The position numbers were made by a program, and so were the translations under genes. 64,000 nt of DNA from an uncultured Candidatus Saccharibacteria bacterium. Lineage in GTDB: Bacteria > Patescibacteriota > Minisyncoccia > Phycocordibacterales > DATDWN01. Where the stretch lies: assembly GCA_964596875.1 (NCBI GenBank), contig CAZQVT010000002.1, positions 5,508 through 69,507 on the forward strand, read 5' to 3'. Below, one piece after another: positions 1,739 to 62,108 of this stretch. Positions within the stretch are counted from its first letter, which is position 1. Each line of letters starts with the position of its first letter. The notes beneath the pieces are model-generated. The model ran no database searches and was not told where the DNA came from. It worked only from the letters and a program-made list of their open reading frames with translations.

Positions 1739-3169
1739 TTATTTATTTAATATTTCTAGAATTATTTTTTTGAATACTTCTGGATTTACTGAACCTTTAC
1801 TTTCTTTCATCCCCTGCCCCACAAAAAACTGAAGTAGTGATTCTTTTCCAGATTTATATTCTGCAACTGAATCAGGATTTTCTGAAATAATTTTTTCTGC
1901 CATTCTTTTTATTTCTTCGATATCGTTTTTTTGTATCAATCCTTTTTCGTTTGCGATTACTTCTGCATCACCACCTGTTTCAAAAAGTATTTTCAAAATA
2001 TCTTTTGCTCCACGTGATGATAAGTCGCCTCGACCAATCATCTTGATTAGTTTTACAAAACTATCTATTTCGATCTTACCAACCACAAAGTCTTGTTTTA
2101 GAGTCTTTGAAAAACCTACAATATCTGAGGTTATATAGTTTGAGGCGGTTTGAACCAACTGCCCCTCCCCCAAAAGTCCGGCCACCTTTTCGAAAAAGTC
2201 ACTAGCCTCCCTATTACCAATATATACCTCGATGTCAGAATCTTTCACGCCAAAGTCTTTTGAAAGTCTCTGTCTTTTTAGTTCTGGTATTTCTGGTAAG
2301 TCTTTTGAAAGAGTGTCGCTAGAAAATTCTGGGATCTCACTTATTATAAGTTTTGGTAAATCTGGATCTGGGAAGTACCTATAGTCGTTTGCTGACTCTT
2401 TTAGTCTTTGTGAAAATGTTGAACCTTTGTTTTCATCCCATCCCCTAGTTTCCTGAACCACCTGTTTTCCATCTTCTAGTAAAGCGACCTGTCGTTTGAA
2501 TTCATAGTCAATTGCTTTTCCTGCTGCCTTAAAAGAGTTTATATTTTTTACTTCTACTTTTGTTCCAAATTTTTCTGTATCTGAAACTGAGATATTTACC
2601 TCGACTCGCATTTCGCCCTTTTCCATATTTGCATCTGATACATTTAAATACTGGAGTAGGAGTTGTAGTTCTTTAGCAAAATTCATAGCCTGTTCACTAC
2701 TGTGTATGACTGGCTCAGTCACAAGTTCAAGAAGTGGCACTCCGGCACGGTTATAATCAACCAAACTAACACCCGGTGTTTCGTGGGATGAGCGGGCTGT
2801 GTCTTCTTCTAGGTGTATTCTTGTTAACTCTACACCTGAAATAGATCCTCCTTGTACCAGAGGATATTTGTACTGACTTATCTGATAACCCTTTGGTATA
2901 TCTGGATAAAAGTAGTTTTTACGGTCAAACTCAGTGAAATCGGCCAGTTTACTGCCTATAGAGTGACCCACAAGAAGCACTTTTCTAACAGCCTCCTTGT
3001 TTATAGTAGGTAATGTTCCCGGGTGACCCATGCAAACAGGGCAAATATTAGTATTTGGAGCAACTTCTGTTTTATCAAATGAGCTGTTTTTACAGCCACA
3101 AAACATCTTGCTCTTGGTATTGAGTTCGGCGTGTATCTCTAGCCCAATTGTCATCTTGTACTTATTCAT
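1739..3169 (-). CDS. gatB: Asp-tRNA(Asn)/Glu-tRNA(Gln) amidotransferase subunit B
   Basis: The N-terminus MTIGLEIHAELNTKSKMFCGC and the overall GatB layout are recognised. Confidence 0.93.
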   Translation of the reverse strand: MNKYKMTIGLEIHAELNTKSKMFCGCKNSSFDKTEVAPNTNICPVCMGHPGTLPTINKEAVRKVLLVGHSIGSKLADFTEFDRKNYFYPDIPKGYQISQYKYPLVQGGSISGVELTRIHLEEDTARSSHETPGVSLVDYNRAGVPLLELVTEPVIHSSEQAMNFAKELQLLLQYLNVSDANMEKGEMRVEVNISVSDTEKFGTKVEVKNINSFKAAGKAIDYEFKRQVALLEDGKQVVQETRGWDENKGSTFSQRLKESANDYRYFPDPDLPKLIISEIPEFSSDTLSKDLPEIPELKRQRLSKDFGVKDSDIEVYIGNREASDFFEKVAGLLGEGQLVQTASNYITSDIVGFSKTLKQDFVVGKIEIDSFVKLIKMIGRGDLSSRGAKDILKILFETGGDAEVIANEKGLIQKNDIEEIKRMAEKIISENPDSVAEYKSGKESLLQFFVGQGMKESKGSVNPEVFKKIILEILNK

Positions 3170-11704: not shown

Positions 11705-12421
11705 ATGACTTCAATATTTCACACACTTGTTTCTGAACCTTTATACAGCGGACTAGTTTTTCTTATAAATTCCCTACCCTTCTTTGATGTTGGTGTTGTA
11801 ATAATCATATTTACTATTATTACCAAGATAGTCTTGCTACCCCTTTCTATAAAGGCTTCAAAGTCTCAACTTGAGATGAAGAATGCCGAAAAAGACCTTG
11901 CTGTTATAAAACAAAAATATACAGATAAATCAGAACAGAGTTTGAAGGTGATGGAATATTACAAAGAAAAAGGCATAAATCCTTTTTCTGGAATACTTAT
12001 CCTACTTATTCAACTTCCTATACTTATCGGCCTGTATAGAGTGTTTTTGGGCCTACCAAAGATAAATCTAGACCTTCTATATAGTTTTGTGCCTGCACCA
12101 GAAACAATAAACATGATGTTTCTAGGTTTTGTTGATATGTCACAAAAAAGTTTGGTTTTGGCGCTTCTTGTTGGCGTTACAACATATATACAAACAAGCA
12201 TTGTGAGTTCAGGACAGACTACTGGTGGACAAGATAGTCAAAATGAAATTGCAAAAGCGATGGCTTTTCAAATGAAATACTTCCTTCCGGTATTTATTAC
12301 TGTAGTTATCTACAATATCTCTTCCGCCGTAGCCCTATATTTGTTTGTGAGTAACGTATTTTCTATTGCTCAAGAACTATATATCAAAAACAGATACCAT
12401 AAAAACATAGTGGTTGTTTAA
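11705..12421 (+). CDS. yidC: Membrane protein insertase YidC (short Oxa1-like form)
   Basis: 238 aa with 5 TM segments, following rnpA. Confidence 0.85.
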   Translation: MTSIFHTLVSEPLYSGLVFLINSLPFFDVGVVIIIFTIITKIVLLPLSIKASKSQLEMKNAEKDLAVIKQKYTDKSEQSLKVMEYYKEKGINPFSGILILLIQLPILIGLYRVFLGLPKINLDLLYSFVPAPETINMMFLGFVDMSQKSLVLALLVGVTTYIQTSIVSSGQTTGGQDSQNEIAKAMAFQMKYFLPVFITVVIYNISSAVALYLFVSNVFSIAQELYIKNRYHKNIVVV

Positions 12422-12435
12422 TGTTACCAGTTTAA

Positions 12436-13680
12436 CTATTTAGTCAGGTCCAAACTCCAAAGAGAGTTGTCTTTTTTGTTTACAAACAACAAGTATTGGT
12501 CATTTTCAGAAATGATTGGTTTTATAAGATCAATCTCCTCCCCTGATTCTTTGTTTAGGTCTAAAATTATATTCGAAGTTTTGTTTTCCAGGTCGTATTT
12601 CCAAACGTCGTCATTAAATGATATTTGTCCTTTGTACCAAGCAGTCAAGTTTCCAACTGCTATAAAGTCTTTTGGAACGGCACAGTATATAACTTTTGTA
12701 TTTTTGTTCGCCCACACACATTTTTCAGGAAACGTTGCTGGAGAGATGGTTTCGATAGACATATCTTTTAAGGCATAAGTTTTCATTAGGGCTGATCCGT
12801 CTTGGTCAAGGTATAAAACATCACTACCTGTAGGATTTACTAAAGTAGTAAGACCTTTTATATCCCCCATTATTTTCCTAACCCCCGCGTTTGTTGTATC
12901 AACAAAATATAAATACCCTGGAGTGTTTTCCTCTGATTTTGTGGTTAGGGCAACAATTTTTGCATTTACATACTGAGAAACCAGCTCTCTTATTGGAGAA
13001 TTCCATATTTGTTTTTTGTTTTTTCCATCAAAACTAGATACAAAACCATAAGAAGCGTTACTAACTTGTTCAAGATAAAATACGCTAGATCCAAAAGCGC
13101 TAACACTAGAAATATTCTGTTCCATTGCGGTTCCAGATATTGTGTTTTCTGTTGTGGTGCTAATATTTTTAAGTGTAAGTGTGTATGTGTCTACAGTGAT
13201 GTCATCATCTTTAAGATATTGAGCAACTAGAGAATCGTTTTTGTTTCCCCAGAAGGCTTCATAAACCATTGGTATGGTTGTGTTAGAGATTCTACCTTGT
13301 CTAGGTGAAAACAATTCAACTTCATAAATGTGACCAGTTGCTTTTTCTATATATCTAACAACAGAGCCAGCCTTTACGTCTAGGATTCCTGCTCCAGCGA
13401 CAGGCTCAGAAGTTATTTTTCTTAGTTTTTGAGTAAAGTCATTGTTGGTCTCTACTGGCACTTCTTCTGGAGTTTCTTCAGGAGTGTTTGTGTTATCTGT
13501 TACAGTGTCGCCTCCAAACGGAAAGAAGTTTCTGAAAATATTTGTACTTGTTGGGCTTCCGTCTGGATTTTTATTCAGCATGTAAAATGCAAACAATACA
13601 AGTAGTACCAAAACTAGGATTACAGATATTAATATGTAGATATTTTTTTTAGACATCTTTTTTAAAATTGTATATGCCAA
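12436..13680 (-). CDS. Membrane-anchored (N-terminal TM) extracytoplasmic beta-rich protein. It is the last gene of the T4SS-like operon.
   Basis: Single N-terminal TM, then a 370-aa Thr/Ser-rich domain. An alternative start at M9 (13656) would remove the 19-nt overlap with the upstream gene. Confidence 0.55.
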   Translation of the reverse strand: MAYTILKKMSKKNIYILISVILVLVLLVLFAFYMLNKNPDGSPTSTNIFRNFFPFGGDTVTDNTNTPEETPEEVPVETNNDFTQKLRKITSEPVAGAGILDVKAGSVVRYIEKATGHIYEVELFSPRQGRISNTTIPMVYEAFWGNKNDSLVAQYLKDDDITVDTYTLTLKNISTTTENTISGTAMEQNISSVSAFGSSVFYLEQVSNASYGFVSSFDGKNKKQIWNSPIRELVSQYVNAKIVALTTKSEENTPGYLYFVDTTNAGVRKIMGDIKGLTTLVNPTGSDVLYLDQDGSALMKTYALKDMSIETISPATFPEKCVWANKNTKVIYCAVPKDFIAVGNLTAWYKGQISFNDDVWKYDLENKTSNIILDLNKESGEEIDLIKPIISENDQYLLFVNKKDNSLWSLDLTK

Positions 13681-29192: not shown

Positions 29193-30293
29193 TTGAGGCA
29201 CTCACAAGATCCTCATTTTAGGTCAGGTCTTAAAATCACTAGCACTTGGTTTCGAAAGAGCCTAAGTCAGGTGGGATCTACCAAAAATGTGGTGAAAATA
29301 CTCACTTTTTTAACCGTTAACCCGGCTCTGCTTTTGTCTTTGGTTTTTCCAATACAGGCGTCGGCTTGCGGTATTTTTGATATAAAGTCTTGCTTTACAA
29401 GTAGTTCGAAAGTAGAGGCTGAAGAGGTGGTAACTTCAAATTCACAAAACATAGCACTTCTTCAAGCTCCCCTTTCACCGTTTTCAAAAGCATCATCTAC
29501 AGATGATGATGGTTCAATAATAGATGACACATACATTACCTCAGAAGTTCAAACCGCGGATGAAACAAGAACTATAGATAACGAACAGATTAGTGTATAT
29601 GTGGTACACAGCGGGGATACTCTACCTGCTATTGCAAAAATGTTTGGTGTTACTACAAACACTATCAGATGGGGTAACGACTTGAAGACTGACAAACTAA
29701 CTCCTGGTCAAACTTTGGTTATCTTGCCTATTTCGGGAGTTCAACATAAAGTTAAGTCAGGTGAAACTATTCAAGGTATTACAAAAATGCATAAAGGTGA
29801 CCTGGACGAAGTTTTGCAGTACAACAACCTAACTAAATCATCAAAACTGGCTATTGGAGATATTATTGTTATCCCAGACGGAGAAATGGTTGCCGTTTCT
29901 GCTGGTACAAAGAAAACTACAAGTTCAACAAACTATTCTGGACCTGCATACAGCGGATACTATATGAGACCAATCGTGGGTGGTATAAAGACTCAGGGTG
30001 TTCATGGTCACAACGGTGTAGATCTGGCTTCTAGTTACGGTGCAAACATTTTAGCATCTGCGTCTGGTGAAGTTATTATTGCAAGAACAGGTTGGAATGG
30101 TGGATACGGTACATATGTGGTAATAAAACATGCAAATGGTACTCAGACTCTGTATGGACACCTAAGCGCTCTGTCAGTTTCTCCTGGAGATAGTGTTTAT
30201 CAGGGTCAGATAATAGGAAAAATGGGAAGTACTGGAAAGAGTACGGGTACTCATTTACATTTCGAGATTCGAGGCGCCCGCAATCCATTTTAA
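29193..30293 (+). CDS. Secreted peptidoglycan hydrolase with two LysM domains and a C-terminal M23 peptidase
   Basis: LysM domains YVVHSGDTLPAIAKMFGVT and HKVKSGETIQGITKMH. M23 motifs HGHNGVDLAS (HxxxD) and GTHLHFEI (HxH). The true start may be the GTG near 29290. Confidence 0.85.
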   Translation: MRHSQDPHFRSGLKITSTWFRKSLSQVGSTKNVVKILTFLTVNPALLLSLVFPIQASACGIFDIKSCFTSSSKVEAEEVVTSNSQNIALLQAPLSPFSKASSTDDDGSIIDDTYITSEVQTADETRTIDNEQISVYVVHSGDTLPAIAKMFGVTTNTIRWGNDLKTDKLTPGQTLVILPISGVQHKVKSGETIQGITKMHKGDLDEVLQYNNLTKSSKLAIGDIIVIPDGEMVAVSAGTKKTTSSTNYSGPAYSGYYMRPIVGGIKTQGVHGHNGVDLASSYGANILASASGEVIIARTGWNGGYGTYVVIKHANGTQTLYGHLSALSVSPGDSVYQGQIIGKMGSTGKSTGTHLHFEIRGARNPF

Positions 30294-30422
30294 AACTTCC
30301 TAATTTGGCGAACTCCTCGTTCTCGTGTTTAAAAATGTTCGTCACCTTACGACTTGTAAGGCTCTTCTCATTTCTAAACTCTCAACATCGGATTTCATCC
30401 AAATTTCGAAAGTTTAATATTT
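30294..30422. repeat. Type-A hairpin repeat, copy 1
   Basis: AACTTCCTAATTTGGCGAACTCC...CTCGTCACCTTACgacttGTAAGGCTC...CTCTCAACATCGGATTTCATCCAAATTTCGAAAGTTTAAT. It starts immediately after the stop codon of the M23 gene. Confidence 0.8.
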
Positions 30423-36575: not shown

Positions 36576-36947
36576 AAATAGTTTTCCACAGTTTTGGTAG
36601 GTGTGTCCTTTACACATTTTTCTAAAAGACTTAAACTAATTAAGGAAACGCAATTAGAGTGTCCGATATGATAAACCCCGTACCGTGCACGACATTTGTA
36701 ATTTTGTTCTTTGTCGCGCGCCCATTTTGGGAGTCGGCCGACTCCCCTCTTAGAAGACCACTTGGTTTCCAATCAAGACGTAGGTGTAAACGAACCCTCA
36801 CTATCTACTTATTTTTTGGAGTTCAGTTACAACATCTAACTTCACGGATGCTGCGTGGGTCTTCTCCACAAACCGCTCAATGAATAGTGCCCGTAATTCC
36901 AACCTACGGACCCTGCTTATTGGGCGGTTTTTTAATTGTTCAAACCA

Positions 36948-37052
36948 TAGATTTTGCCAATCTCATCTTCTAAATTTTAAAAATGCTCGTCACCTTACTA
37001 AGTGTAAGGCTTCTCTCATTTTAAAAATTTATAAGCGACCTTGTCTAAAATC
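36948..37052. repeat. Type-B hairpin repeat, copy 1
   Basis: TTTTGCCAATCTCATCTTCTAAATTTTAAAAATGCTCGTCACCTTACtaagtGTAAGGCTTCTCTCATTTTAAAAATTT...AGCGACCTTGTCTAAAATC. It has an outer AT-rich stem and an inner hairpin. Confidence 0.75.
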
Positions 37053-37064
37053 TTCGGTTTGAAT

Positions 37065-40311: not shown

Positions 40312-40398
40312 CAATTATAAAAAATGATGCGCCGGTCCTCGTGCGAGGAACCAGCGCATGCCCCAGTAGGGGACTTCAGGTCGAATCGGTTGAACGGG

Positions 40399-40617
40399 TC
40401 ACTCGATGCTGTCGTTCGGGTCGGGGAGCTTGCCCCTGCCCCCACGACTCACCTTGCCGCCCTTCGAGCCAGCGATGCCCGCGGACTCGGAGTTCCACTC
40501 GTGGGCCGTGCCCTTTGCGTGGGCAGCCCTGCCACCCTTGCTTGCGATTTCTCGCTGACGCTCCGTGCTCATGGCAGCGAAGCCTCTTTTCTTCCCGTTC
40601 CGAACGTGATCCGTCAT
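40399..40617 (-). CDS. KGG-repeat general stress protein (YciG/GsiB-like). It is encoded on a 65% GC cassette of about 340 bp.
   Basis: RGFAAMSTERQREIASKGGRAAH...SESAGIAGSKGGKVS are KGG motifs. The cassette has its own GGAGGA SD and a GC-rich terminator followed by TTTTTT at 40324..40345. Confidence 0.65.
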   Translation of the reverse strand: MTDHVRNGKKRGFAAMSTERQREIASKGGRAAHAKGTAHEWNSESAGIAGSKGGKVSRGGRGKLPDPNDSIE

Positions 40618-40697
40618 GGGTCCTCCAGGGTTTTCTGGCCAAGTCAGACTATATCAGAATAATAGAAACAGTCTAGTTTTTGTGGTAGTGTTTTTGT

Positions 40698-41009
40698 ATG
40701 GTTTTTATAAAAAATAAAGAAAATTTTGTATGTGAAAAATGCGGCTTTGAGGTAGAAGGGGATGGTTTTACAAACCATTGTCCAGAGTGTTTGTGGTCAA
40801 AGCATGTAGATATTTCTCCTGGCGACAGACTAAATATCTGTGGGGGACTAATGGAACCAATACAAATACTGAAAAAGGGAAGAGAGTATTCTATTTTACA
40901 CAAATGTACAAAGTGTGGGTTTGAAAAACCTAATAAGGCAAGTATGAATGATAATTTCCAAATTATTGTCCAAGTTTCTGCATCTGGCCAATCTCATCGT
41001 CTAAAATAA
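40698..41009 (+). CDS. RNHCP-domain zinc-ribbon protein
   Basis: CEKCG...TNHCPECLWSKHVD...CTKCG. The last 8 codons and the stop codon lie inside the type-B repeat. Confidence 0.6.
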   Translation: MVFIKNKENFVCEKCGFEVEGDGFTNHCPECLWSKHVDISPGDRLNICGGLMEPIQILKKGREYSILHKCTKCGFEKPNKASMNDNFQIIVQVSASGQSHRLK

Positions 41010-41086
41010 TAAATAAAATTCTCAATGTACTAATTTGTACACCTCCAATTTTATTTATTATTTCATACGCGACCTTGTCTCAGATC
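40986..41086. repeat. Type-B hairpin repeat, copy 2
   Basis: GGCCAATCTCATCGTCTAAAATAA, then a perfect 18-bp AT-rich outer inverted repeat (AAAATAATAAATAAAATT / AATTTTATTTATTATTTT) enclosing TGTACtaatttGTACA, then ACGCGACCTTGTCTCAGAT. Confidence 0.8.
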
Positions 41087-41106
41087 CAGAAACTTTGTTA
41101 AAGGTT

Positions 41107-47130: not shown

Positions 47131-47305
47131 ATGAAAATGAGTCTATATTATTCGCCTTATTTTAGCAAATAATTTTTTAGAAAGCTTAAATTTGAGACAA
47201 GATTGCGGATAAAACAAAAACTGAACCCGGAGGTGTACATTTAGTACATTGAGGATTCAGTTTTTATTTTTAGCCGATAAGGTTGGCCAAATTTGAGCTT
47301 TTTAA

Positions 47306-47708: not shown

Positions 47709-48464
47709 TTAATTTGTACCTGTTGTTGTTGCTGTAGGAGTAGTTGTTGCCTTACCGTTGTTTAATTGTGACATACCCTTTAGGCTTCCAAGCGCCTTTT
47801 CAAGCATTTTGTGAGCTTCTTTTAGATGTTTCTCTATACCTTTCTCTATGCCCTTCATTTTTTCTAGGTTTTCTTTTTTAACAGTATCAGTAGTAGTAGA
47901 TAGGTTTTGTGCGGTTGTACTTGCGGTAAGTTTTAGGTTTGCTAAGTCAGTTTTAGCACTTTCTATATGAGTTTTTGCTTCTGCTGTTAGTTTTTCTGCC
48001 TCCGTAGTGTTTCCACCTCCAGTTTTAACTTTTTCAATTCTAGTATTCAACTTTGACATTATTGACTCTTCTCTTTGTATCGTAGCCTCTATTCTTCTTA
48101 GCATTTTATCAAACTGTCGCTTTACTTCTTTCATTATTCTTTCTCTTCTATCCTCCATTCTTTCTTTCATTTTTTCTGTACCACTAGCGATTCTGTCCTT
48201 AATATCCTCTCTTTTTTCTTTTAGTCTTTCTGTTGTACTAGCTAGTTTGTCTTTTCTGGCCTCAGCAGTACTAGCCATTTTATTCTTTAGTTCCATCTCT
48301 CTTTTGTCATCCATCATGGCCTTTACAGGTCTTGGTGGTTTTACTCCAGATGTACTAGCATTTTGTGGGGGAGGTAATGTGCCTGTATCTTGTGCCAAAG
48401 CCACTGTTGCACCTCCTAGAGCAATAATAGTTATGAGTGAATTTAATATAAGTTTTTTCATCAT
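47709..48464 (-). CDS. Secreted Lys/Glu-rich coiled-coil protein
   Basis: Signal peptide MMKKLILNSLITIIALGGATVALAQ, then about 200 aa of charged heptad-like sequence. Confidence 0.55.
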   Translation of the reverse strand: MMKKLILNSLITIIALGGATVALAQDTGTLPPPQNASTSGVKPPRPVKAMMDDKREMELKNKMASTAEARKDKLASTTERLKEKREDIKDRIASGTEKMKERMEDRRERIMKEVKRQFDKMLRRIEATIQREESIMSKLNTRIEKVKTGGGNTTEAEKLTAEAKTHIESAKTDLANLKLTASTTAQNLSTTTDTVKKENLEKMKGIEKGIEKHLKEAHKMLEKALGSLKGMSQLNNGKATTTPTATTTGTN

Positions 48465-48547
48465 TTCAAAAATTACTTTTAATATTGTAATGAAATAATT
48501 ATACACCATAGATCTGGTTTTTGTTTTCAGTTGTTAACATCAAAAAA

Positions 48548-48570
48548 CCGCACATACTGTGCGGCTTTTT
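48548..48570 (-). terminator. Terminator of ppa. The hairpin CCGCACAgtatGTGCGG plus a T-run is read on the minus strand.
   Basis: Seen in the sequence. Confidence 0.7.
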
Positions 48571-48669
48571 GAGAAATATTATTTTCCTGAGTTTTTATCA
48601 CCGACGTAGAGCGAGAGAAATGAAAGCGTACTCACTTTCATTTCCGAGCCGAGGAGGGTGATATAAGGT

Positions 48670-49185
48670 TTAAGACCTTTTATAGTTTTCTCTAGCTCTT
48701 TCAAATGCTTCCATAGCCTTATCCTTTCCATCAATACCATTGATTTCTACAACTTTGTCTTGAAGATTCTTGTATGTTTTGTAGAAGTGCTCGATTTCCT
48801 TTAGAGTGTGTTTGTTTACATCTTTTAGGTCTTTAACATCATCCCATCTAGGGTCTTTTACTGGAACAGCGATGATTTTCGCATCAGACTCACCGTCATC
48901 TACCATGTTTACAACCGCTACGGGTCTAACTTTTACAAGTATTCCAGGGGCTAGGGGATTTGTTGTAAGAACTAGCACATCTAGTGGGTCGCCATCATCC
49001 CAAAGAGTTTGAGGAACGAAACCGTAGTCAAAAGGGTAGTCCTGAGTAGTGTACATCGCTCGATCTAGCATGATAAGACCAGTTTCTTTGTCTATCTCGT
49101 ATTTGTTTTTACTACCTTTGTTTATCTCAATAATAACATTCATTTTCTCAGCAGATCCGGCGTCGATTTCCTTTATTAGATTCAT
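48670..49185 (-). CDS. ppa: Inorganic pyrophosphatase
   Basis: DGDPLDVLVL motif. Confidence 0.95.
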   Translation of the reverse strand: MNLIKEIDAGSAEKMNVIIEINKGSKNKYEIDKETGLIMLDRAMYTTQDYPFDYGFVPQTLWDDGDPLDVLVLTTNPLAPGILVKVRPVAVVNMVDDGESDAKIIAVPVKDPRWDDVKDLKDVNKHTLKEIEHFYKTYKNLQDKVVEINGIDGKDKAMEAFERARENYKRS

Positions 49186-49228
49186 TTTATTAGTTTTTTA
49201 AATGATTAATAATTTTATTCTAGCACAA

Positions 49229-50377
49229 TTATTTTTCTTCAGATGTAGTTTCTGCCTCCGCACTATCTTTTTGTACAGACTGTATGTCTATTTTCCATCC
49301 AGTTAGCTTCGCGGCTAGGCGAACATTTTGTCCTCCTTTACCGATAGCTAGTGACTGTTGATCCTCTGAAACAGTAACAGTTGCTTGTTTTTCTGTTTCG
49401 TTTATTTTTACTTCTAGGATTTTTGCTGGAGATAGAGCATCCTCGATAAACTTTTTAGGGTCTTCATTCCACTCTATAATATCTATTTTCTCTCCTCCTA
49501 GTTCTGACATAACTGTTGAAACACGTACTCCTCGCTGACCAACCATAGAACCAACTGGGTCAATGTGTGAGTCTGCAGAAGAAACTGCGATTTTTGTTCG
49601 AGAACCAGCTTCTCTTGCTACAGATTTTACAACCACTGTGCCGTTTGCGATTTCTGGCGCCTCTGCTTCAAATAGTTTCTCTAGAAACTTTGGGTGACTT
49701 CTTGAAAGTCTTAGAAACACACCTTTTCCAGATTCTTCTACTCTATATAGGTATGCTCGTACTCTTTCTCCTTGTCCAAATCTTTCTCCTGGGATTTGTT
49801 CCTCGTATGGAAGTAGTCCTGTTGCTCGGCCCATGTCTATAAAGATATTGCCTCGCTCGATTCTTTGTACAGTTCCTGTAACTATTTCTCCTTCACGTGC
49901 ACCGAACTGACTAATAATAGAAACTTTTTCAGCCTCTCGTATTTTTTGCATGATAACTTGCTTTGCTGTTTGTGCAGCGATTCTAGAATAGTCGTCTTGT
50001 GACTCAAGAGGGAAGATCATTTCCTCTCCTAGAGCAACATTTTTCTTTATTCTTCGAGCATCATCTATCATTATATGATGTTCAGGGTTGTATAAGTCTA
50101 TTTGTGTAGAAGGGTCTGCTGTAGGGTCAAACTCTGGTAGATCGTCTTCGTCCATAACAACAGTAGTATCATCCACTACCTTTTTAACCTGGAACATTTC
50201 TGTTTTTCCAGAGTTCATATCGAACTTTGCCTTAACTATTTGTCCTTTCTTTCCGTACTCTTTTTTGTATGCAGTTGCTAGGGCAAGTTCAATAGCCTCA
50301 AGGATTTTTTCTCGAGGGATACCTCTTTCTTCTTCTAGTTGTGTTAGTACACTACTTACTACTTTTAAATCAATCAT
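49229..50377 (-). CDS. nusA: Transcription termination/antitermination factor NusA
   Basis: MIDLKVVSSVLTQLEEERGIPREKILEAIELAL, plus S1 and KH domains. The start is taken at M52 of the ORF. Confidence 0.9.
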   Translation of the reverse strand: MIDLKVVSSVLTQLEEERGIPREKILEAIELALATAYKKEYGKKGQIVKAKFDMNSGKTEMFQVKKVVDDTTVVMDEDDLPEFDPTADPSTQIDLYNPEHHIMIDDARRIKKNVALGEEMIFPLESQDDYSRIAAQTAKQVIMQKIREAEKVSIISQFGAREGEIVTGTVQRIERGNIFIDMGRATGLLPYEEQIPGERFGQGERVRAYLYRVEESGKGVFLRLSRSHPKFLEKLFEAEAPEIANGTVVVKSVAREAGSRTKIAVSSADSHIDPVGSMVGQRGVRVSTVMSELGGEKIDIIEWNEDPKKFIEDALSPAKILEVKINETEKQATVTVSEDQQSLAIGKGGQNVRLAAKLTGWKIDIQSVQKDSAEAETTSEEK

Positions 50378-50610
50378 TTTAATTTTAATTATTTTGGTAA
50401 AGCTGTTTAATTGTTTTTTTACCCCTGGTAAAAAAACGAGCCCGCCCGGGTGGGCGAACTTCAATATCAGTATAATACACCCTATATTATTTCTTGTCAA
50501 ATCCATAAATTCATCTGTTGTAAGAAACAAATCAATAAAATTTTACAAATTTGTGTAAATCTTTAAGCATTACAAAAAAATATCTGTTACAATATTAGTA
50601 ATAAATTTCT

Positions 50611-52365
50611 ATGCACATTGAAGAAAAACAATTAAAAGATTTTATTTTGGATTCCGGTCTTGTTTCAAAGACAGATATTGAGGCTGTAGAAAAAGAAACA
50701 AAAGAAAAAGGTGGCAACTTGGGTAAAGCTTTGGTAAATAAGGGCAAACTTACCGAGGATGACTTGCGTCGAATGCAGGCATACATACTAGGTATTCCTT
50801 TTGTTGATTTGAAAAAAGAAAAACTTCCTTTCGAGGTCCTTTCACTTATTCCAGAGCCAATCGCAAGAAACCACAACATTGTGGCTTTTAAAAAAACTGA
50901 CAACAGTCTTGAGGTGGCCATGTTAGATACAGAAGACCTTACTGCTATAGATTTCGTTAAAAAGAAAACCGGTCTAAAGATTTTGCCTCGACTTACAGAT
51001 GATGAGTCAATAAAAAGTGCAATACTTCAGTATCAAAAAAGTCTAAAGGCAGAGTTCGGCGACCTTATTGCGGAGGATGTAAGTAATATTAAAAGTATTC
51101 CTTCAAATGTAGATGGTGCAGAACTAAACGAGCAGGATCTAAAAAAGATGGCCGATGATATCCCGATGATCCGTATCGTAGATACTCTTTTGAAACATGC
51201 CATACTTCAAAACGCTTCAGATATTCATATAGAGCCACAAGAAGCAGAACTTTTGGTGAGATACCGTATAGACGGATTACTGCATGATGCCATGATTTTA
51301 CCTAGAAACATGGCCCCAAGTATCGCTGCACGTATAAAAGTTCTGTCTTCTCTAAAACTAGATGAAAAAAGACTTCCACAGGACGGAAGATTTAAAATCG
51401 ACTCTGATGGAGAAAAAGTTTCTTTCCGTGTTTCATCACTTCCTACATATTACGGAGAAAAGATCGTGATGCGTTTGCTTCGTGAAAATGTTTCCGGTTT
51501 TACACTAGAAGCGCTTGCATTTCACGGGGAAGGGTTGGATAGAATCCATAAGGCGGTAAAAAGTACAACAGGAATGATCCTAACTACAGGTCCTACTGGT
51601 TCTGGTAAAACAACTACACTATATACTGTGCTAGATATCCTAAATACTCCAGATGTAAACATCTCTACTATTGAAGACCCTATCGAATACCAGATGAAAA
51701 GAGTAAACCAAACCCAGGTTCGTCCCGAAATCGGTTTTACTTTTGCTTCAGGACTCCGAACACTGGTTCGTCAGGATCCGGATATTATCATGGTAGGAGA
51801 GATTCGAGACGGTGAGACGGCGTCTCTGGCTATTAACGCGTCCCTTACAGGTCATGTTGTGCTTTCAACACTTCACACAAACTCTGCGGCGGGTGCCGTG
51901 CCTAGACTTATAGATATGAAAGTTGAACCTTTTCTTATTGTTTCTACTATAAATATTATTATTGGTCAGCGACTTGTACGAAAACTTACCGACCAAAAAG
52001 AGAAATACTTTTTAACAAAAGCCGAGATAGACACTTTGGGTAAGTCTATAAATCTAGATAAAGTACTAAACGCTCTTAAAGACGAAAAAGTTATTGGCAA
52101 AAGCGACAAATGGGAAGACGTTCCGTTTTGGCGACCTAAAAAAGACGCAAATCCAGAAGACTGTTTTGCAGGAAGAAGTGGTATTCACGAAATTCTAAAA
52201 GTTTCTCCGGCGATAAAAGAAATTATTTTGAAATCTGGTACAACAGATGATATTCAAAAAGTTGCAGAGGCTGAAGGTATGCTAACTATGATGGAAGATG
52301 GAATTTTCCAAGCAGTACAGGGTTATACAACTATTGAGGAGGTGCTTCGAGTTATTTCTGAATAG
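50611..52365 (+). CDS. pilB: Type IV pilus assembly ATPase PilB (GspE family)
   Basis: Walker A GPTGSGKTTTLY, Asp box, His box, and an N-terminal GspII-like domain. Confidence 0.92.
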   Translation: MHIEEKQLKDFILDSGLVSKTDIEAVEKETKEKGGNLGKALVNKGKLTEDDLRRMQAYILGIPFVDLKKEKLPFEVLSLIPEPIARNHNIVAFKKTDNSLEVAMLDTEDLTAIDFVKKKTGLKILPRLTDDESIKSAILQYQKSLKAEFGDLIAEDVSNIKSIPSNVDGAELNEQDLKKMADDIPMIRIVDTLLKHAILQNASDIHIEPQEAELLVRYRIDGLLHDAMILPRNMAPSIAARIKVLSSLKLDEKRLPQDGRFKIDSDGEKVSFRVSSLPTYYGEKIVMRLLRENVSGFTLEALAFHGEGLDRIHKAVKSTTGMILTTGPTGSGKTTTLYTVLDILNTPDVNISTIEDPIEYQMKRVNQTQVRPEIGFTFASGLRTLVRQDPDIIMVGEIRDGETASLAINASLTGHVVLSTLHTNSAAGAVPRLIDMKVEPFLIVSTINIIIGQRLVRKLTDQKEKYFLTKAEIDTLGKSINLDKVLNALKDEKVIGKSDKWEDVPFWRPKKDANPEDCFAGRSGIHEILKVSPAIKEIILKSGTTDDIQKVAEAEGMLTMMEDGIFQAVQGYTTIEEVLRVISE

Positions 52366-52495
52366 TATAGAACTTCCAAAACTGGCGAATTTCTTGTTTC
52401 GTTTTTGAAAATTCTCGTCAGTGTACTAAATGTACACCTCCTCATATTTCCAAACTCTCAACGTCGGATTTCATCCAGTTTGTGAAAGTTTAATG
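52366..52495. repeat. Type-A hairpin repeat, copy 2
   Basis: AACTTCCAAAACTGGCGAATTTCTTGTTTCG...CTCGTCAGTGTACtaaatGTACACCTCCTCA...CTCTCAACGTCGGATTTCATCCAGTTTGTGAAAGTTTAATG. It starts right after the pilB stop codon. Confidence 0.8.
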
Positions 52496-52620
52496 TTGTC
52501 TTGAGATTATTTGACAAAGTATATAAATGATGTATTGTTTGGTGTAGAAAGCTCCAGATGAGGCGAAGAACGTCTCCTTTCTAGAGAAGAGCTCTAGGAT
52601 GATCGGAGTTGAGGCTTATC

Positions 52621-53106
52621 ATGGTTGAAAGAATCGATGGGAAAGTGTCTGCGGGTGTGTGTTTTGCCGCAGCATTACTGCTCTCCCTTCTTACCTTCTT
52701 GATGTCTGAGAAGACAAGCACTGCCTTTTGTGCGTCGGCAGTGGTGTTCGCTGTCATGGGGTGGATTTCAGTCGCGTGTCTTTGTGACGACATTCGCCTT
52801 CAATGGCAGCGTGGCGAGAATGCCTGCAAAGAGAGAGAGGACAGAATCAATCTCGTAGTGTCCACATTCCTCACACAAGAGGCCGTGGATGCAAAGTTAC
52901 AACAACTGGCTACAAAAGCAGAGAACATGTTTCGTGACCAGGCCCAGTACCACGAGGGCAAGGAACGAAACATCGACGACGTCACTGCTCTGCTGATTGC
53001 TCGAGCCGTGGCAAATGCAAAGAGTGAATTCTGGTCGGCACACGAGTTGGCCAAGAGTCTCGGCTTCAAGGTCCGTCCCAAGATCAGAAGCTACACCAAG
53101 AAGTAG
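52621..53106 (+). CDS. Hypothetical 2-TM membrane protein encoded on a GC-rich (about 52%) insert between pilB and pilC
   Basis: ORF of 161 aa ending in a GC-rich palindromic terminator. Confidence 0.45.
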   Translation: MVERIDGKVSAGVCFAAALLLSLLTFLMSEKTSTAFCASAVVFAVMGWISVACLCDDIRLQWQRGENACKEREDRINLVVSTFLTQEAVDAKLQQLATKAENMFRDQAQYHEGKERNIDDVTALLIARAVANAKSEFWSAHELAKSLGFKVRPKIRSYTKK

Positions 53107-53114
53107 CACCATCG

Positions 53115-53143
53115 CGCCCGCGGGTCACACAGACCCGCGGGCG
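53115..53143 (+). terminator. GC-rich perfect palindrome CGCCCGCGGGTcacacagACCCGCGGGCG
   Basis: Seen in the sequence directly after the stop codon of the 52621 ORF. Confidence 0.6.
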
Positions 53144-53428
53144 TTTCGCATATAAAAACGAGTCTTAATTTTTTAAAACATTGCACAGTCAATTAGAAAA
53201 CAACGACTGGAAGCGTCAGTCTGGAGAAACTGTTTGAGACACGTAACCGTGGCGAGTTTTTCGAGAAGACGAGCGAGAAGGAGGTTGTTTTCTTGATTGA
53301 CGAGCATAGTAAAAGTTCAACAGAACTTTATACGTGTTTTAAAAAATAAGATGAGTCTATTTTTATTCACAATATTTAAATACAAATAATTTTTGTTTTG
53401 ATACAATTATAGAAGCGAAAAAACTTTT

Positions 53429-54640
53429 ATGTTGTTTCATTACAAAATTTTAAATAAAGAGGGAAAGGTGGTGGAGGGGAATATGGAAGCAAAAGATAAA
53501 TTTGCTCTATATCATACTATTAAACAAGACGGTGCCACTGTAGTTTCTGCTGAAGAAGTAAAAGATAAAAAAGAATATAACATTCCTATACTTTCAGCGA
53601 TGTTTGAAGGTGTAAAAACTCGTGACAAAATCACTTTTGCAAAAAACTTGGCAAAAATGACAGAGGCTGGTCTACCAATAACACGTGCACTTTCTATTTT
53701 GGAAAGACAGGCAAAGGGCCAGTTCAAAAAAATACTAGTTGGTCTTCAGGATTCACTAAACAAAGGAGATACTCTAAGTGATGCGATGAAAGTGTATCCA
53801 AAAGTTTTTTCTACACTTTTTATATCTATGGTAAAAGCAGGTGAAGAGTCTGGAAACCTAGCACAATCTCTACAGAACGTTGGTATGCAAATGGAAAAGT
53901 CATATCTTCTCACTAAAAAAATCCGGGGAGCGATGATGTATCCTGCAGTTATTTTCTCACTCATGATAGTTATTGGAGTTTTGATGATGGTTTACATGGT
54001 GCCAACACTTACAGCAACATTTATTGGTCTTGGTATAAAACTTCCTCTGTCTACGCGTATTATTATTTGGATAAGTAACTTCCTAAAATCAAACTTTATA
54101 TACGTTATATTGGGAACTATTGGTTCAATATTTCTTTTCATTACAGGTTACAGAACACAAAAAGGCCAACGTATTGCGGACTATGTCTTCTTGCATCTGC
54201 CAGTAATAAAGGAGATTGTAAAACAAATAAACTCTGCTCGTACCGCCAGAACTTTATCCTCACTCATTTCTTCTGGAGTTGATATCGTTTTGGCGATAGG
54301 AATTACAAAAGAAGTTATACAAAACTCATATTATAAAACTGTATTGCAAGAAATACAGGAGGTGATTCAAAAAGGAGAGCCAATATCTGCTGTATTTACT
54401 GCAAATCCAAAACTTTATCCTCTTTTTGTGGGAGAAATGGTTTCTGTGGGTGAAGAGACGGGTAAAATCGGTGAAATGCTTATGGGTGTAGCGACATACT
54501 ATGAAGAAGAAGTGGATCAGAAGACAAAAGATATGTCTTCAATCATTGAGCCGATTCTGATGATATTTATTGGTGCAGCGGTGGGATTTTTCGCACTGAG
54601 TATGCTAGGTCCGACTTATTCACTCGCCGACGCACTGTAG
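53429..54640 (+). CDS. pilC: Type IV pilus inner-membrane platform protein PilC (GspF family)
   Basis: Two GspF repeats and 3 TM segments. Confidence 0.9.
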   Translation: MLFHYKILNKEGKVVEGNMEAKDKFALYHTIKQDGATVVSAEEVKDKKEYNIPILSAMFEGVKTRDKITFAKNLAKMTEAGLPITRALSILERQAKGQFKKILVGLQDSLNKGDTLSDAMKVYPKVFSTLFISMVKAGEESGNLAQSLQNVGMQMEKSYLLTKKIRGAMMYPAVIFSLMIVIGVLMMVYMVPTLTATFIGLGIKLPLSTRIIIWISNFLKSNFIYVILGTIGSIFLFITGYRTQKGQRIADYVFLHLPVIKEIVKQINSARTARTLSSLISSGVDIVLAIGITKEVIQNSYYKTVLQEIQEVIQKGEPISAVFTANPKLYPLFVGEMVSVGEETGKIGEMLMGVATYYEEEVDQKTKDMSSIIEPILMIFIGAAVGFFALSMLGPTYSLADAL

Positions 54641-54760
54641 AAATTCCAAATTTGGCGAATTCCTTGTTTCGGTTTTGAAAATTCTCGGCGATGTACTATT
54701 TGTACACCTTCTCGGATTTTCAAAACCTCAACTACGGACTTCACTCAAATTTTAAATTTC
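54641..54760. repeat. Type-A hairpin repeat, copy 3
   Basis: AAATTCCAAATTTGGCGAATTCCTTGTTTCGG...CTCGGCGATGTACtatttGTACACCTTCTC. It lies between the pilC stop codon and the pilin gene start. Confidence 0.8.
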
Positions 54761-57196: not shown

Positions 57197-58653
57197 TGAA
57201 AAACAAAAAAATATCACAACGAGGCAGTTTGATGATACAGGCACTAGTTTTCGGTTCCATTTCTGTTGTTCTTATAGGTGCACTTATTAGTTGGGCTGCT
57301 GTAAACATTAAGTCCGGTAAACTTTCAATAAAAAGAGAACAAGCATTACAAATAGCAGAGGCGGGAATAGATTACTATAGATGGCATTTGGCACATGCTG
57401 CTACAGATTATCAGGATGGTACAGGTGTAGCGGGCCCATATGTGCACGACTTTTTCGATAAAGACGGAGTAAAAATCGGAGAATATTCTCTAGAGATTAC
57501 ACCACCACCTACAGGTTTTACTTTGGTAAAAATAAAATCAACAGGAAAACTTTTGTCAGACCCAACAGTAACTAGAACAATACAGACAGGTCTAGCGATA
57601 CCTTCACTTGCAAAATATGCTATTGCCTCAAACAGTGACATTCGTTTTGGAGAGGGAACAGAAGTTTTTGGTCCTATACATTCAAACGGTGGTATACGTT
57701 TTGATGGTCTAGCACACAACTTGGTTACAAGTTCAAGAACATCCTACGATGATCCTGACCACACAGGAGGTTCAGAATATGGTGTTCATACACACTTGAA
57801 CATTCCTCCAACTAGCACAAATGATACCTTTCGTGCTGCAGAGGCACCGAATGCTACTTTAGCAAACAGAGCCGACGTATTTATGGCGGGTAGACAGTTT
57901 CCAGTTCCGGCTATCGACTTTCTAGGATTTACAACTGACCTTGCGACTATAAAAACAAACGCTCAGGCAAGTGGAAGATATTTTGGAGCATCTGGTGCTT
58001 TGGGTTATAGAGTCTTATTTAAAACAGATGACACTTTTGATTTGTACAGAGTAAACAATATTACTGCAACACCAAACAACTGTAGTGAAACTACAACCGG
58101 TTGGGGAACATGGAGTATTAGAACAACAAACGGTTCTCAAACTTTTATAGCAAACTACGCTATACCTGCAAACGGACTTATCTTTGTGGAGGACAATGTT
58201 TGGGCAGAGGGGCAAATAAATAGTGCCAGAGTAACTTTGGCTGCAGGAAAGTTTCCAGACAATGCTGCAACTAGACCTAATATAATGATAAATAATAATC
58301 TTTTGTATACAAACTATGATGGTCAGGATGTTATTTCGCTTATTTCACAGGGAAATATAAACGCAGGGCTTTCGAGTGCAAGTACTATGCGTGTGGACGC
58401 TGCTTTGGTTGCACAAAATGGTCGCGTAGGTAGATATCACTATTCTTCAAACTGTGGAACTGGCTATCAGAGAACAAAAATTACACTATATGGAATGATC
58501 GCAAGTAACCAAAGATACGGTTTTGCCTATACAGACGATACTGGCTATGCAGAAAGAGACATTATATATGATGCAAACTTGTTGTATGGTCCGCCGCCTA
58601 GTTTCCCGCTGACCGGCGATCAGTATCAGATAGTCTTCTGGCAAGAACTGTAA
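57196..58653 (+). CDS. PilX-N-like pilus assembly / minor pilin-like protein
   Basis: QRGSLMIQALVFGSISVVLIGAL is a PilX_N-type hydrophobic N-terminus with Q at +5. It is followed by a 450-aa extracellular domain. Confidence 0.55.
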   Translation: MKNKKISQRGSLMIQALVFGSISVVLIGALISWAAVNIKSGKLSIKREQALQIAEAGIDYYRWHLAHAATDYQDGTGVAGPYVHDFFDKDGVKIGEYSLEITPPPTGFTLVKIKSTGKLLSDPTVTRTIQTGLAIPSLAKYAIASNSDIRFGEGTEVFGPIHSNGGIRFDGLAHNLVTSSRTSYDDPDHTGGSEYGVHTHLNIPPTSTNDTFRAAEAPNATLANRADVFMAGRQFPVPAIDFLGFTTDLATIKTNAQASGRYFGASGALGYRVLFKTDDTFDLYRVNNITATPNNCSETTTGWGTWSIRTTNGSQTFIANYAIPANGLIFVEDNVWAEGQINSARVTLAAGKFPDNAATRPNIMINNNLLYTNYDGQDVISLISQGNINAGLSSASTMRVDAALVAQNGRVGRYHYSSNCGTGYQRTKITLYGMIASNQRYGFAYTDDTGYAERDIIYDANLLYGPPPSFPLTGDQYQIVFWQEL

Positions 58654-58763
58654 AACTTCCAAATTTGGCCAATCTCATCGTCTAAAATAAAACCCGGCTC
58701 GTCAATGTACCGTAAGTACACCTCCGATCCGGTTTTTATTTTATACGCGATCTTGTCTCAAAT
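58654..58763. repeat. Type-B hairpin repeat, copy 3
   Basis: AACTTCCAAATTTGGCCAATCTCATCGTCTAAAATAAAACCCGGCTCGTCAATGTACcgtaaGTACACCTCCGATCCGGTTTTTATTTTATACGCGATCTTGTCTCAAAT. Confidence 0.8.
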
Positions 58764-58836
58764 TATAAAAGTTCTACCACATCGGCGTATATTGGATTTT
58801 CGTATACAAAACAATAATTTGGTACAATATTGCCAT

Positions 58837-60730: not shown

Positions 60731-60743
60731 TTCACTAGAAAAA

Positions 60744-60771: not shown

Positions 60772-60927
60772 ACTATGCTTGACTTTAATGCATATATTGT
60801 GGCATAATTTAGGAGTAGAAGTTCTTTTATTAAGATTAGTGTAGTCATAGCCAAAAGAGGTTTAAGTACAGACACTTTTTGGCTATGACTACATCGTGTG
60901 GTCCGCTAGCACAACCATGGAGGTTGT

Positions 60928-61467
60928 ATGAAGATCAGTGATGTCTCGAAACTCAGGGGACCGCTCGGAGAACTCATGAACCAGCTTCTCGGCCAGAACG
61001 GTGAGGAGCGACTTGCAGAACTCAACCTCTGGCTCAAGCGAGTCGGTGTTGGGATTCTCCTCACCATCGACCGAACTCTGACTGCCGAACAGGCAGTGGA
61101 GAAGACCGGTCGAGTCTGGTGGCACAAGAACCAGGTGGAGCTCGACAACGCTCCAATCTCTGGATCGTTTCAAGTCTCGCTGGAGATCTTCGAGCTCGAC
61201 TACGAGCCGACGCTGGTGGAACTCGACAGAGAGTACGCCTCTCGGGGTCTCAAGCCTGATCTCTCGGCTCTCTCACAGTACATATGCGAGAAGCCGGAAG
61301 CAGCAGACGACAGACCCATCGCTTGCCAGTGGGGTTTCAAGCCCGAAGGTACTGCAGCGTGCGCCGTCTTTAACCGGGGCACCTCGGAGCGCGGTGTGTT
61401 CGTGGACCGCTTCGGCACTCGCTGGGGTCGTCTGTATCGTTTCGCCGGCGTTCGTGAAGTCAAGTAA
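60928..61467 (+). CDS. Hypothetical 179-aa protein on a 58% GC cassette
   Basis: A GGAGGT SD lies 7 nt upstream. The codon usage is unlike the AT-rich neighbours. No recognisable domain. Confidence 0.5.
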   Translation: MKISDVSKLRGPLGELMNQLLGQNGEERLAELNLWLKRVGVGILLTIDRTLTAEQAVEKTGRVWWHKNQVELDNAPISGSFQVSLEIFELDYEPTLVELDREYASRGLKPDLSALSQYICEKPEAADDRPIACQWGFKPEGTAACAVFNRGTSERGVFVDRFGTRWGRLYRFAGVREVK

Positions 61468-61500
61468 CACAAGCCCTCAACTATGAGGCAAAATATATGA

Positions 61501-61528
61501 CCGCACACTTGGAGGAGTGTGCGGTTTT
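61501..61528. terminator. Second copy of the CCGCACACTTGGAGGAGTGTGCGGTTTT hairpin. It terminates both the cassette gene (+) and the HIT gene (-).
   Basis: Direct repeat of 60744..60771. Confidence 0.75.
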
Positions 61529-61874: not shown

Positions 61875-62108
61875 AAACTTTATATTACCACAAAAACCTC
61901 GTTGAACTCATGACTTTTGTGGAACATCGCGGAACCCGTGAAGAGGTGAGTGAGAAAGTCTGGGAGACTTTCGCAAGACCTTGAGCACAAAGTGGCGAAA
62001 GGTGTACAGTTCCTGTAAGGAACGAAGAAATTTGCCAGCAGGCGAATATTCTGTTTCCAGAAAAGTTATGAGGAAAAAGAGGTTGTTTATGTGTGCTAAA
62101 CTATTGGG

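Follow-up and report, generated by a model that had tools for sequence, protein, structure and literature searches.

A probable accessory-gene cassette at an exchange hotspot between pilB and pilC in Patescibacteria

Introduction

Why should a GC-rich gene for a small membrane protein stand between pilB and pilC, two type IV pilus genes that are neighbors in most relatives? Patescibacteria are ultra-small, mostly uncultured symbionts in which type IV pili are believed to serve in attachment to hosts and in the uptake of DNA. The gene in question, which encodes 161 amino acids (aa), lies in a 64,000-nt stretch of DNA (the window; GC content about 37%) whose best PilB matches, 65 to 91% identical, come, with the exception of one record under a Nitrospira label, from metagenome-assembled genomes (MAGs) of Patescibacteria of the Paceibacteria/Parcubacteria type, to which the window was assigned. 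Related loci used for comparison are labeled L002 to L102. We consider it probable that the segment carrying the gene is an autonomous accessory unit seated in an integration hotspot, and neither part of an ancestral pilus operon nor an artifact.

Results

The gap between pilB and pilC is an accessory-gene hotspot

PilB was 65 to 91% identical across 80 Patescibacteria genomes, and 74 species representatives held both pilB and pilC. The gap between the two genes was at most 141 nt in 62 of these, 150 to 400 nt in 7, and more than 1 kb in 5, which agrees with the premise of the initial annotation of this DNA that the genes are normally adjacent; the window spacer measured 1,063 nt. In the closest clade, taken as Paceibacteria with PilB 83 to 95% identical, the gap contents varied. 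Those of L002, L003, and L005 carried no gene but only a palindromic repeat, whole or in part (type A, see below), and the pilC promoter; L002, the nearest species representative (PilB 91% identical), had a 156-nt gap. Members of the family of the 161-aa protein occupied the gap in L083, L087, L089, L090, L099, and L100. Other GC-rich single-gene units with their own promoters were found there in L006, in L007 (two units), and as the first unit of L100, and the gap of L004 contained ordinary low-GC genes including one for a NUDIX hydrolase. L100 (PilB 95% identical) thus held two tandem cassettes in an array-like arrangement: on the reverse complement of this locus, positions 1240-2000 encode a GC-rich multi-span membrane protein of about 185 aa belonging to a different family, and positions 2020-2660 hold the family member. 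Among more distant relatives, the gap of L053 carried a hicB/hicA-like toxin-antitoxin pair (2606-3121) and that of L047 a DUF559-like open reading frame (ORF) plus a methyltransferase fragment (11848-12501), both recognized by eye from their translations. No family member was found within 10 kb of pilB in any of the 80 species representatives, and the family was only patchily present in metagenomic relatives. Because the gap can be empty, filled by family members, or filled by unrelated cargo, it is a general accessory-gene hotspot, and its cargo is probably exchanged horizontally.

The locus in the window is laid out as follows.

50611..52365, + strand: pilB, type IV pilus assembly ATPase, bounding the hotspot on the left (Pfam T2SSE 1.9e-116, MshEN 8.6e-15)
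52364..52493, + strand: type-A palindromic repeat, a long imperfect hairpin right after the pilB stop codon (nhmmer, fold)
52511..52538, + strand: sigma-70-type promoter of the cassette, TTGACA-16-TATTGT (consensus scan, 10 of 12 matches)
52542..52624, + strand: conserved structured 5' untranslated region (5'-UTR), here the leader (covariance model R1, minimum-free-energy fold)
52621..53106, + strand: 161-aa membrane-protein gene of an unnamed Patescibacteria family (HMMER, AlphaFold, ratio of nonsynonymous to synonymous substitution [dN/dS])
53115..53143, + strand: GC-rich perfect palindrome, the terminator hairpin of the cassette (inverted repeat I2)
53166..53349, no strand given: type-B long hairpin element, a separate insert that lies after the cassette and ahead of the pilC promoter (inverted repeats I1 and I4)
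53363..53408, + strand: conserved pilC upstream region, right edge of the variable slot (96% identical to L087 1080-1125)
53429..54640, + strand: pilC, type IV pilus platform protein, bounding the hotspot on the right (Pfam T2SSF 2.2e-55, domain present twice)

The GC-rich ORF with two transmembrane segments, the palindrome, and the adjoining repeat were all located where the initial annotation had placed them. It gave about 650 bp as the segment separating pilB from pilC, which is less than the full spacer, and the palindrome proved perfect and slightly better than described, its two 12-nt arms (53115-53126 and 53132-53143) enclosing a loop of 5 nt. Upstream of pilC, an extended -10-like sequence, TGATACAAT, occurs at 53399-53407, and TTTTGATACAATTA likewise precedes pilC in L006, L007, L089, L090, and L100, suggesting that 53363-53408 holds a promoter belonging to pilC itself.

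The cassette is organized as a self-contained transcription unit

Comparison of 16 distinct cassettes determined where the conserved unit begins and ends. Similarity started at the -35 box and stopped at the terminator hairpin, with nothing conserved upstream, and TTGACA (TTGACG in L095) together with a -10-like hexamer was found at a constant distance from the leader in all 16. In L087, L088, L089, L090, L099, and L100, a homologous hairpin stood 3' of the ORF, with bases changed in compensation and a clear T-tract. In the window, a terminator scan left 53115-53143 uncalled because only TTTCGCAT follows the hairpin. Judged from these alignments, promoter, leader, ORF, and hairpin form a complete, autonomous transcription unit.

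The gene encodes a conserved membrane protein of an unnamed family

The ORF at 52621-53106 encodes 161 aa from its ATG, or 165 aa from a TTG upstream. A word-indexed search with this single protein as the query returned nothing but the query itself, and exhaustive HMMER searching of 1.84 billion representatives retrieved 45 unnamed homologues (E ≤1e-3) of 92 to 199 aa, the best being 58% identical. These share two N-terminal hydrophobic helices and three motifs (alignment A2), QW..G, STFLTQE.VD..L..LA, and AK..FW.AH.LA..LGF.V..K..DY. The window protein fits the family as defined from this alignment, namely 130 to 200 aa with the two helices and the three motifs; it scored 166.6 bits against the profile, and its motifs were recognizable with substitutions, such as RSY for the consensus-final DY. 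Hydrophobic stretches at about residues 9-28 and 35-55 exceeded a Kyte-Doolittle 19-residue mean of 1.6, and both were helical in an AlphaFold model built with the family alignment (mean predicted local distance difference test [pLDDT] score of 91.5). The model placed helices at residues 8-28, 32-83, 86-112, and 120-146, forming a membrane hairpin, whose second helix (32-83) extends beyond the membrane, followed by a helical bundle. By the positive-inside rule, both termini would be cytoplasmic, and hence the bundle would be too. Between the cassette ORF and its closest homologue, that of L087, dN/dS was about 0.33. Given 45 homologues of like size and architecture, a confident model, and this dN/dS value, the ORF represents a genuine gene from an unnamed family and not the nonconserved noise that, according to the initial annotation, would have refuted its reading.

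The family has so far been found solely in Patescibacteria-like contigs and is rare. For the 161-aa protein, Pfam gave no significant match, PADLOC anti-phage defense families gave none up to E 0.1, and PHROGs gave nothing significant, the best hit being a family of unknown function at E = 0.049. Neither sequence nor fold similarity was found to described type IV pilus components (PilM/N/O, pilins, and PilZ-type regulators).

A structured leader precedes the gene

The minimum-free-energy fold of the leader was a three-way junction. Helix P1, in which 52550-52555 pairs with 52605-52610 (AGCUCC with GGAGUU), is the enclosing helix in most members; P2 (GAGGCG-AAGAA-CGTCTC, 52560-52576) is an invariant hairpin across members; and P3 has the form CTAGAG-AAGAG-CTCTAG in the window (52581-52597) and NNNGAG-AAGAR-CTCN'N'N' in the family. 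The Shine-Dalgarno sequence GAGG (52611-52614) adjoins the end of P1. This leader was present in all eight members that were reached by protein search and read at the DNA level, and a pattern derived from it pulled nine more cassettes out of metagenomes; the other 2 of its 11 hits, L097 and L101, were rejected as cassettes because they are chance pattern matches within coding regions of GC-rich organisms. Covariance model R1 scored 85.2 bits at 52542-52624 and 54 to 85 bits on family leaders, and elsewhere in 1.5 Mb of related genomes nothing exceeded 15 bits. The three outer P3 pairs covaried, with 5 to 7 double compensatory changes apiece, and the structure paired in 88% of alignment cells versus 25 to 53% with slid partners. 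G-U pairs on the sense strand favor an RNA element over a DNA operator. Conservation was also high relative to the gene, as 7 of 82 leader positions differed from L087 by a by-eye count, whereas 57% of the synonymous sites of the ORF did. In Rfam 15 at gathering thresholds, the window matched tRNAs only, with no family for the leader, palindrome, or repeats, and a permissive Rfam scan of 52360-53430 gave two chance-level hits (E above 5).

Sequestration of the Shine-Dalgarno sequence was considered as a mode of action and is not clearly supported, since P1 pairs the upstream GGAG and the likely GAGG site is free in the predicted fold. The leader would control gene expression at the RNA level through binding of a protein or ligand beside the ribosome-binding site. 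A possible 8-codon upstream ORF (MRRRTSPF, 52557-52583 in the window) was also seen by eye in 8 of 15 leaders; it is probably an incidental by-product of the conserved hairpin sequence.

Base composition and relationships point to exchange of the gene

The GC content of the cassette ORF was 0.514, against a mean of 0.373 for 486-nt windows (standard deviation, 0.041; z = 3.5), and its GC content at third codon positions (GC3) was 0.59, against a median of 0.29 for the 57 long ORFs of the window and 0.29 for pilB, pilC, and pgk. The GC-rich stretch extends to about 53300, with the type-B hairpin element contributing after the gene. Composition and the gap survey together support the view, put forward in the initial annotation, of a foreign-looking single-gene cassette inserted between normally adjacent genes.

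The flanking genes and the cassette gave different pictures of relatedness. Between the window and L090, PilB was 93% and PilC 80% identical, and the cassette protein 35%; the corresponding values for the window and L100 were 95%, 78%, and 37%. PilB was not available for the two comparisons with L087, in which PilC and the cassette protein were 79% and 59% identical for the window, and 91% and 30% identical for L100. Cassette protein similarity does not track that of the flanking genes, and our reading of alignment A2 suggests that at least three divergent family groups share the slot in closely related genomes. Horizontal transfer, as first proposed, is the best reading in view of the gene-less gap of L002 and of these incongruent identities. 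Synonymous sites of pilB and pilC were near saturation between the compared genomes (synonymous difference, pS, 0.62 to 0.79), so that "recent" transfer can be meant in a relative sense only, at pS values of 0.57 to 0.8.

The initial annotation had taken relatives with the same gene at similar GC in the spacer as speaking against foreign origin, and such relatives were found in part, namely L083, L087, L089, L090, L099, and L100. Because they hold homologues in the same spacer at elevated GC, the gene is one allele of a family recurring at this site and not a one-off recent import. At this site, GC3 was 0.37 in L090, 0.39 in L100, and 0.54 to 0.59 in L087, L083, and the window; it was 0.76 to 0.79 for members in GC-richer hosts, giving a family range of 0.37 to 0.79. 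Family members had GC contents of 0.44 to 0.61 regardless of host GC, falling below the host in L102 and L093. The GC3 spread may reflect different times of arrival from a GC-richer pool, followed by drift toward host composition.

On this evidence, cassettes would be exchanged between Patescibacteria, the likely route being DNA uptake and then homologous recombination anchored in the highly conserved pilB and pilC flanks; such exchange would need no recombinase, target duplication, or repeat. Gene exchange of Patescibacteria is mostly within Patescibacteria, and competence via pili and ComEC has been proposed (PMC12455944).

The type-A repeat is resident and not part of the cassette

Because a repeat bounds the cassette on the left, the initial annotation had suggested it as a landing site. 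The type-A repeat (family D1/D2) is an imperfect palindrome of about 125 nt, and nhmmer found seven copies in the window.

30288-30412: type-A copy
36942-37057: type-A copy
40976-41092: type-A copy, about 340 nt from a GC-rich island (the KGG island, below) with another gene between
47186-47304, - strand: type-A copy
52364-52488, + strand: type-A copy after pilB
54634-54757: type-A copy after pilC
58647-58771: type-A copy after the gene ending at 58653

The copy after pilB folded at -28.2 kcal/mol (z = -3.4), better than 200 of 200 shuffles. Comparison of coordinates for the three copies checked, namely those following pilB and pilC and the one at the gene that ends at 58653, showed that the repeat starts at or just after the stop codon, and it is kept after pilB in L003 and L005, which have no gene in the gap, and in L057 (PilB 67% identical). 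Such retention suggests a functional role, for instance that of a hairpin at the 3' end, more than a purely selfish nature. Conversely, the -35 box of the L090 cassette directly follows the pilB stop codon with no type-A repeat, family members outside the clade also lack it, and five of the seven window copies have no adjoining GC-rich gene. The repeat thus occurs without the cassette and the cassette without the repeat, so the landing-site proposal fails, and the repeat is resident backbone. The repeat search found no direct repeats flanking the pilB-pilC cassette.

The type-B element (53166-53349) looks like a second kind of long-hairpin repeat. It spans 180 nt, is bounded by perfect terminal inverted repeats of 13 nt, and has a fold energy of -59.7 kcal/mol. 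Related copies occupy the corresponding site of L006 and L083, again between cassette and pilC; in L009 a related copy lies elsewhere.

The left junction is supported by a second assembly

An independent Logan assembly of SRR12712864 matched window positions 48012-53104 at 100% identity, and its contig ended 10 nt short of the palindrome. Since a second assembly reproduces the left junction, there is no binning artifact there. To check the right junction against another assembly, the exact PilC sequence of the window was looked up, and no record of it turned up. The order pilB, cassette, pilC recurred with diverged sequences in six other metagenome samples, which makes a chimera very unlikely.

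Other GC-rich islands and elements were observed

The window contains three GC-rich single-gene islands in total. The second, at 60772-61528 after pgk, carries a 179-aa ORF (60928-61467; GC, 0.58; GC3, 0.68) with a TTGACT-17-ATAAT promoter of its own and a long hairpin in the 5'-UTR. On both sides, at 60743 and 61500, it is bordered by a perfect direct repeat, 29 nt long, of the terminator hairpin of pgk. Its protein has 33 unnamed Patescibacteria homologues, many sharing just a module of about 40 aa, and its promoter/leader type recurs in the pilB-pilC gap cassettes of L006 and L007. The third island (40320-40640; GC about 0.62) encodes a 72-aa KGG-repeat stress protein on the minus strand (40399-40617; Pfam KGG, 3.8e-10). 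This island is equipped with a ribosome-binding site and a hairpin of its own, and it has a NUDIX gene on one side and a small zinc-ribbon-like ORF on the other. Separately, a long-hairpin 5'-UTR element at 61881-62108, upstream of a recJ-like gene at 62109, was weakly similar (nhmmer E 1e-3 to 1e-5) to several relatives, including L090 4095-4209 upstream of pilC, and may be a further repeated leader element. A PilB with 86% identity to that of the window is encoded on L011 (JBEBJM010000061.1); this 3.7-kb contig is assigned to a Nitrospira MAG, in which it is probably a binning contaminant.

Discussion

Alternative explanations for the segment

Several results weigh against an exchanged autonomous unit as the explanation. 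Support for the right junction comes from one assembly plus comparative evidence. The window copy has a weaker -10 box (TATTGT) and a weaker U-tract than its relatives have. The fold energy of the leader is unexceptional (z = -1.15), P1 pairs in just 70% of cells, and P2, being invariant, contributes no covariation evidence; moreover, 9 of the 16 leaders in the counted alignment A6 came via a pattern that fixes most of P2 and the P3 core. The cassette pS between the window and L087 (0.57) is no greater than that of pilC (0.62), so these two may have inherited the cassette by descent, and a GC3 that stays high despite saturated synonymous divergence could be selected instead of being a relic of transfer. 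Seven of the 16 distinct family members read sit in this gap, all in one clade, and a single ancient insertion that then diverged very rapidly and recombined locally could be the history of the site. For the cassette we found neither mobility machinery nor a duplicated target site, nor an empty site with a precise boundary, and it is for this reason that the route proposed above is given as a likely one.

Alternatively, the gene could encode a vertically inherited, fast-evolving accessory subunit or regulator of the type IV pilus, seated between pilB and pilC from the origin of the clade, often lost, and with a high GC content that reflects selection and not recent transfer. Homologues do stand in the same gap of six other clade genomes, synonymous divergence from L087 is alike for cassette and pilC, and a membrane-anchored predicted cytoplasmic bundle is well placed to contact PilB or PilC. 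In the distant L085 (PilB 39% identical), a member also lies beside a phosphoribosyltransferase-domain gene, which we take to be ComF-like, and a pilM/pilO/pilB cluster. We nevertheless hold this explanation to be unlikely: identities are incongruent with the flanks, most clearly where PilC at 91% accompanies a cassette protein at 30%; the family is absent near pilB in the species representatives; about half of the members examined lie far from pilus genes (by groES/EL, by dus and dnaX, or by a malic enzyme gene); unrelated selfish cargo uses the same gap; and the protein resembles no known pilus component.

Phage origin was weighed as well. In this reading the gene would be a moron of phage derivation that has persisted in the chromosome; its product might, for example, exclude superinfecting phages by blocking the pilus, as PilB-inhibiting phage proteins do. 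The pilus is a common phage receptor, and Tip and Aqs1 are phage proteins that inhibit the type IV pilus. A unit with its own promoter and terminator, odd composition, and a position between genes adjacent in relatives would suit such an origin, as would a small membrane protein set between pilus motor genes. Inhibition of type IV pilus assembly by phage proteins is described in PMC11461919. We regard this origin as quite improbable, given the absence of phage genes nearby (the neighbors are ppa, nusA, pilB, pilC, pseudopilins, tpiA, and pgk, several named by eye) and the single PHROG match at E = 0.049. Blastn of the segment gave no match in 50,697 phage records or in a plasmid collection, and scans of 2.9 million IMG/VR contigs with the leader pattern and the protein motif gave none either. 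Still less credible is repeat-dependent or site-specific movement with the type-A palindrome or the hairpins as recombination sites, comparable to attC or to IS200/IS605-type subterminal hairpins. The cassette does adjoin a type-A copy in the window, L083, L087, and L099; conserved hairpins lie close to both ends of the unit; and the cassette at 60772-61528 is set between perfect direct repeats of a terminator hairpin, as after hairpin integration. Yet type-A copies occur in gene-less gaps and are missing in L090 and all members outside the clade, the pilB-pilC cassette has no flanking direct repeats, and no integrase or transposase was seen among the neighboring genes read; the hairpins lie within the transcript, downstream of a promoter that belongs to the conserved unit, and sense-strand G-U pairs and stem covariation fit an RNA. 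Finally, an assembly or binning chimera, or a spurious ORF within foreign DNA, retains hardly any credence. The abrupt GC shift, the independent contig that terminates just ahead of the palindrome, and an exact protein known from two assemblies only would fit it, but the left junction is identical in the second assembly, the layout recurs in diverged form in six further samples, and the ORF belongs to a conserved family with a confident structure model under purifying selection. An accessory unit in an integration hotspot is thus the explanation that we prefer.

Comparison with known systems

The arrangement is of a known kind, and what is new is the protein family, the leader RNA that travels with it, and the hotspot at the pilB-pilC junction. 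It is best filed as an accessory-gene hotspot between core genes. Chromosomal hotspots between core genes, filled by homologous recombination, are a general concept of comparative genomics; as in these, a conserved gene pair bounds a fixed site and the accessory genes, including toxin-antitoxin and orphan genes, differ from genome to genome. Here, however, the site lies inside a pilus gene cluster, the cargo is repeatedly one small unit, and we infer recombination in the flanks. Morons, extra transcription units of lambdoid and other phages reportedly described by Hendrix and colleagues, are likewise single genes with their own sigma-70 promoter and hairpin terminator, of deviant composition, and inserted between genes that are adjacent in relatives. 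The cassette has all of these features but resides in a bacterial chromosome rather than a phage or prophage, with no phage genes around and no relatives in phage collections, and its gene travels together with a conserved, structured leader.

Pilus-linked accessory genes are known in Pseudomonas aeruginosa, where tfpO and tfpW to tfpZ lie beside pilA, are tied to pilin alleles, and act on pilin. Like the cassettes, these are variable, horizontally exchanged small genes, several of them for membrane proteins, with alternative alleles in a pilus locus; unlike them, the cassette neighbors motor and platform genes, shows no similarity in sequence or fold, and belongs to a family of which half lies outside pilus loci. 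The pilB-pilC units recall integron cassettes in that single-gene units stand in tandem at one site, a pair each in L100 and L007, and terminate in a palindrome, perfect or imperfect. Integron cassettes are typically promoterless, whereas the pilB-pilC units have their own promoters and the cassette has no flanking repeats. No attC-type core was found at the cassette, the attC consensus not having been modeled, and no recombinase-like ORF was seen by eye from about 4 kb upstream to 10 kb downstream, a region of which part was Pfam-scanned. Similar to cis-regulatory 5'-UTR RNAs, the leader of about 80 nt lies by the ribosome-binding site, is more conserved than synonymous sites, and shows stem covariation and invariant loops; it differs in matching no Rfam 15 family and in having little or no covariation support for two of its three helices.

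A possible link to the pilus

The membrane-anchored bundle would act by protein-protein contact at the inner face of the membrane. Whether its partner is the PilB/PilC motor, which would make the protein a pilus modulator, is the weakest step of the argument, and we put this forward tentatively, as a possibility that we doubt more than we favor. The seven members in the gap and the distant L085 member by the pilM/pilO/pilB cluster point to it. About half of the family members examined lie beside unrelated, non-pilus genes, which counts against it, and it is weakened further because the hotspot alone accounts for the seven gap members. A bolder idea, to which we give little weight, is that the leader with its twin hairpins represents a novel cis-regulatory RNA (a small riboswitch or a site bound by a dimeric RNA-binding protein) and gates a family of membrane-anchored cytoplasmic proteins that tune or block PilB/PilC, with alleles swapped at the pilB-pilC junction to vary pilus behavior. 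If so, allele swapping would vary host attachment, DNA uptake, or evasion of pilus-dependent phages, and the locus would be a pilus-linked counterpart to variable surface-structure islands.

Significance

Overall, this is a tidy case of gene exchange and no new kind of system. The locus shows at base-pair resolution how reduced genomes still acquire and swap genes, as small complete units in a fixed slot. It also provides two objects for follow-up, a confidently modeled membrane-protein family and a leader RNA that is absent from Rfam and far better conserved than its protein. Should the protein act on the pilus motor, it would offer a handle on pilus regulation in a little-known group; if it does not, the site would still mark gene flow and a natural "safe harbor" for insertions in these genomes.

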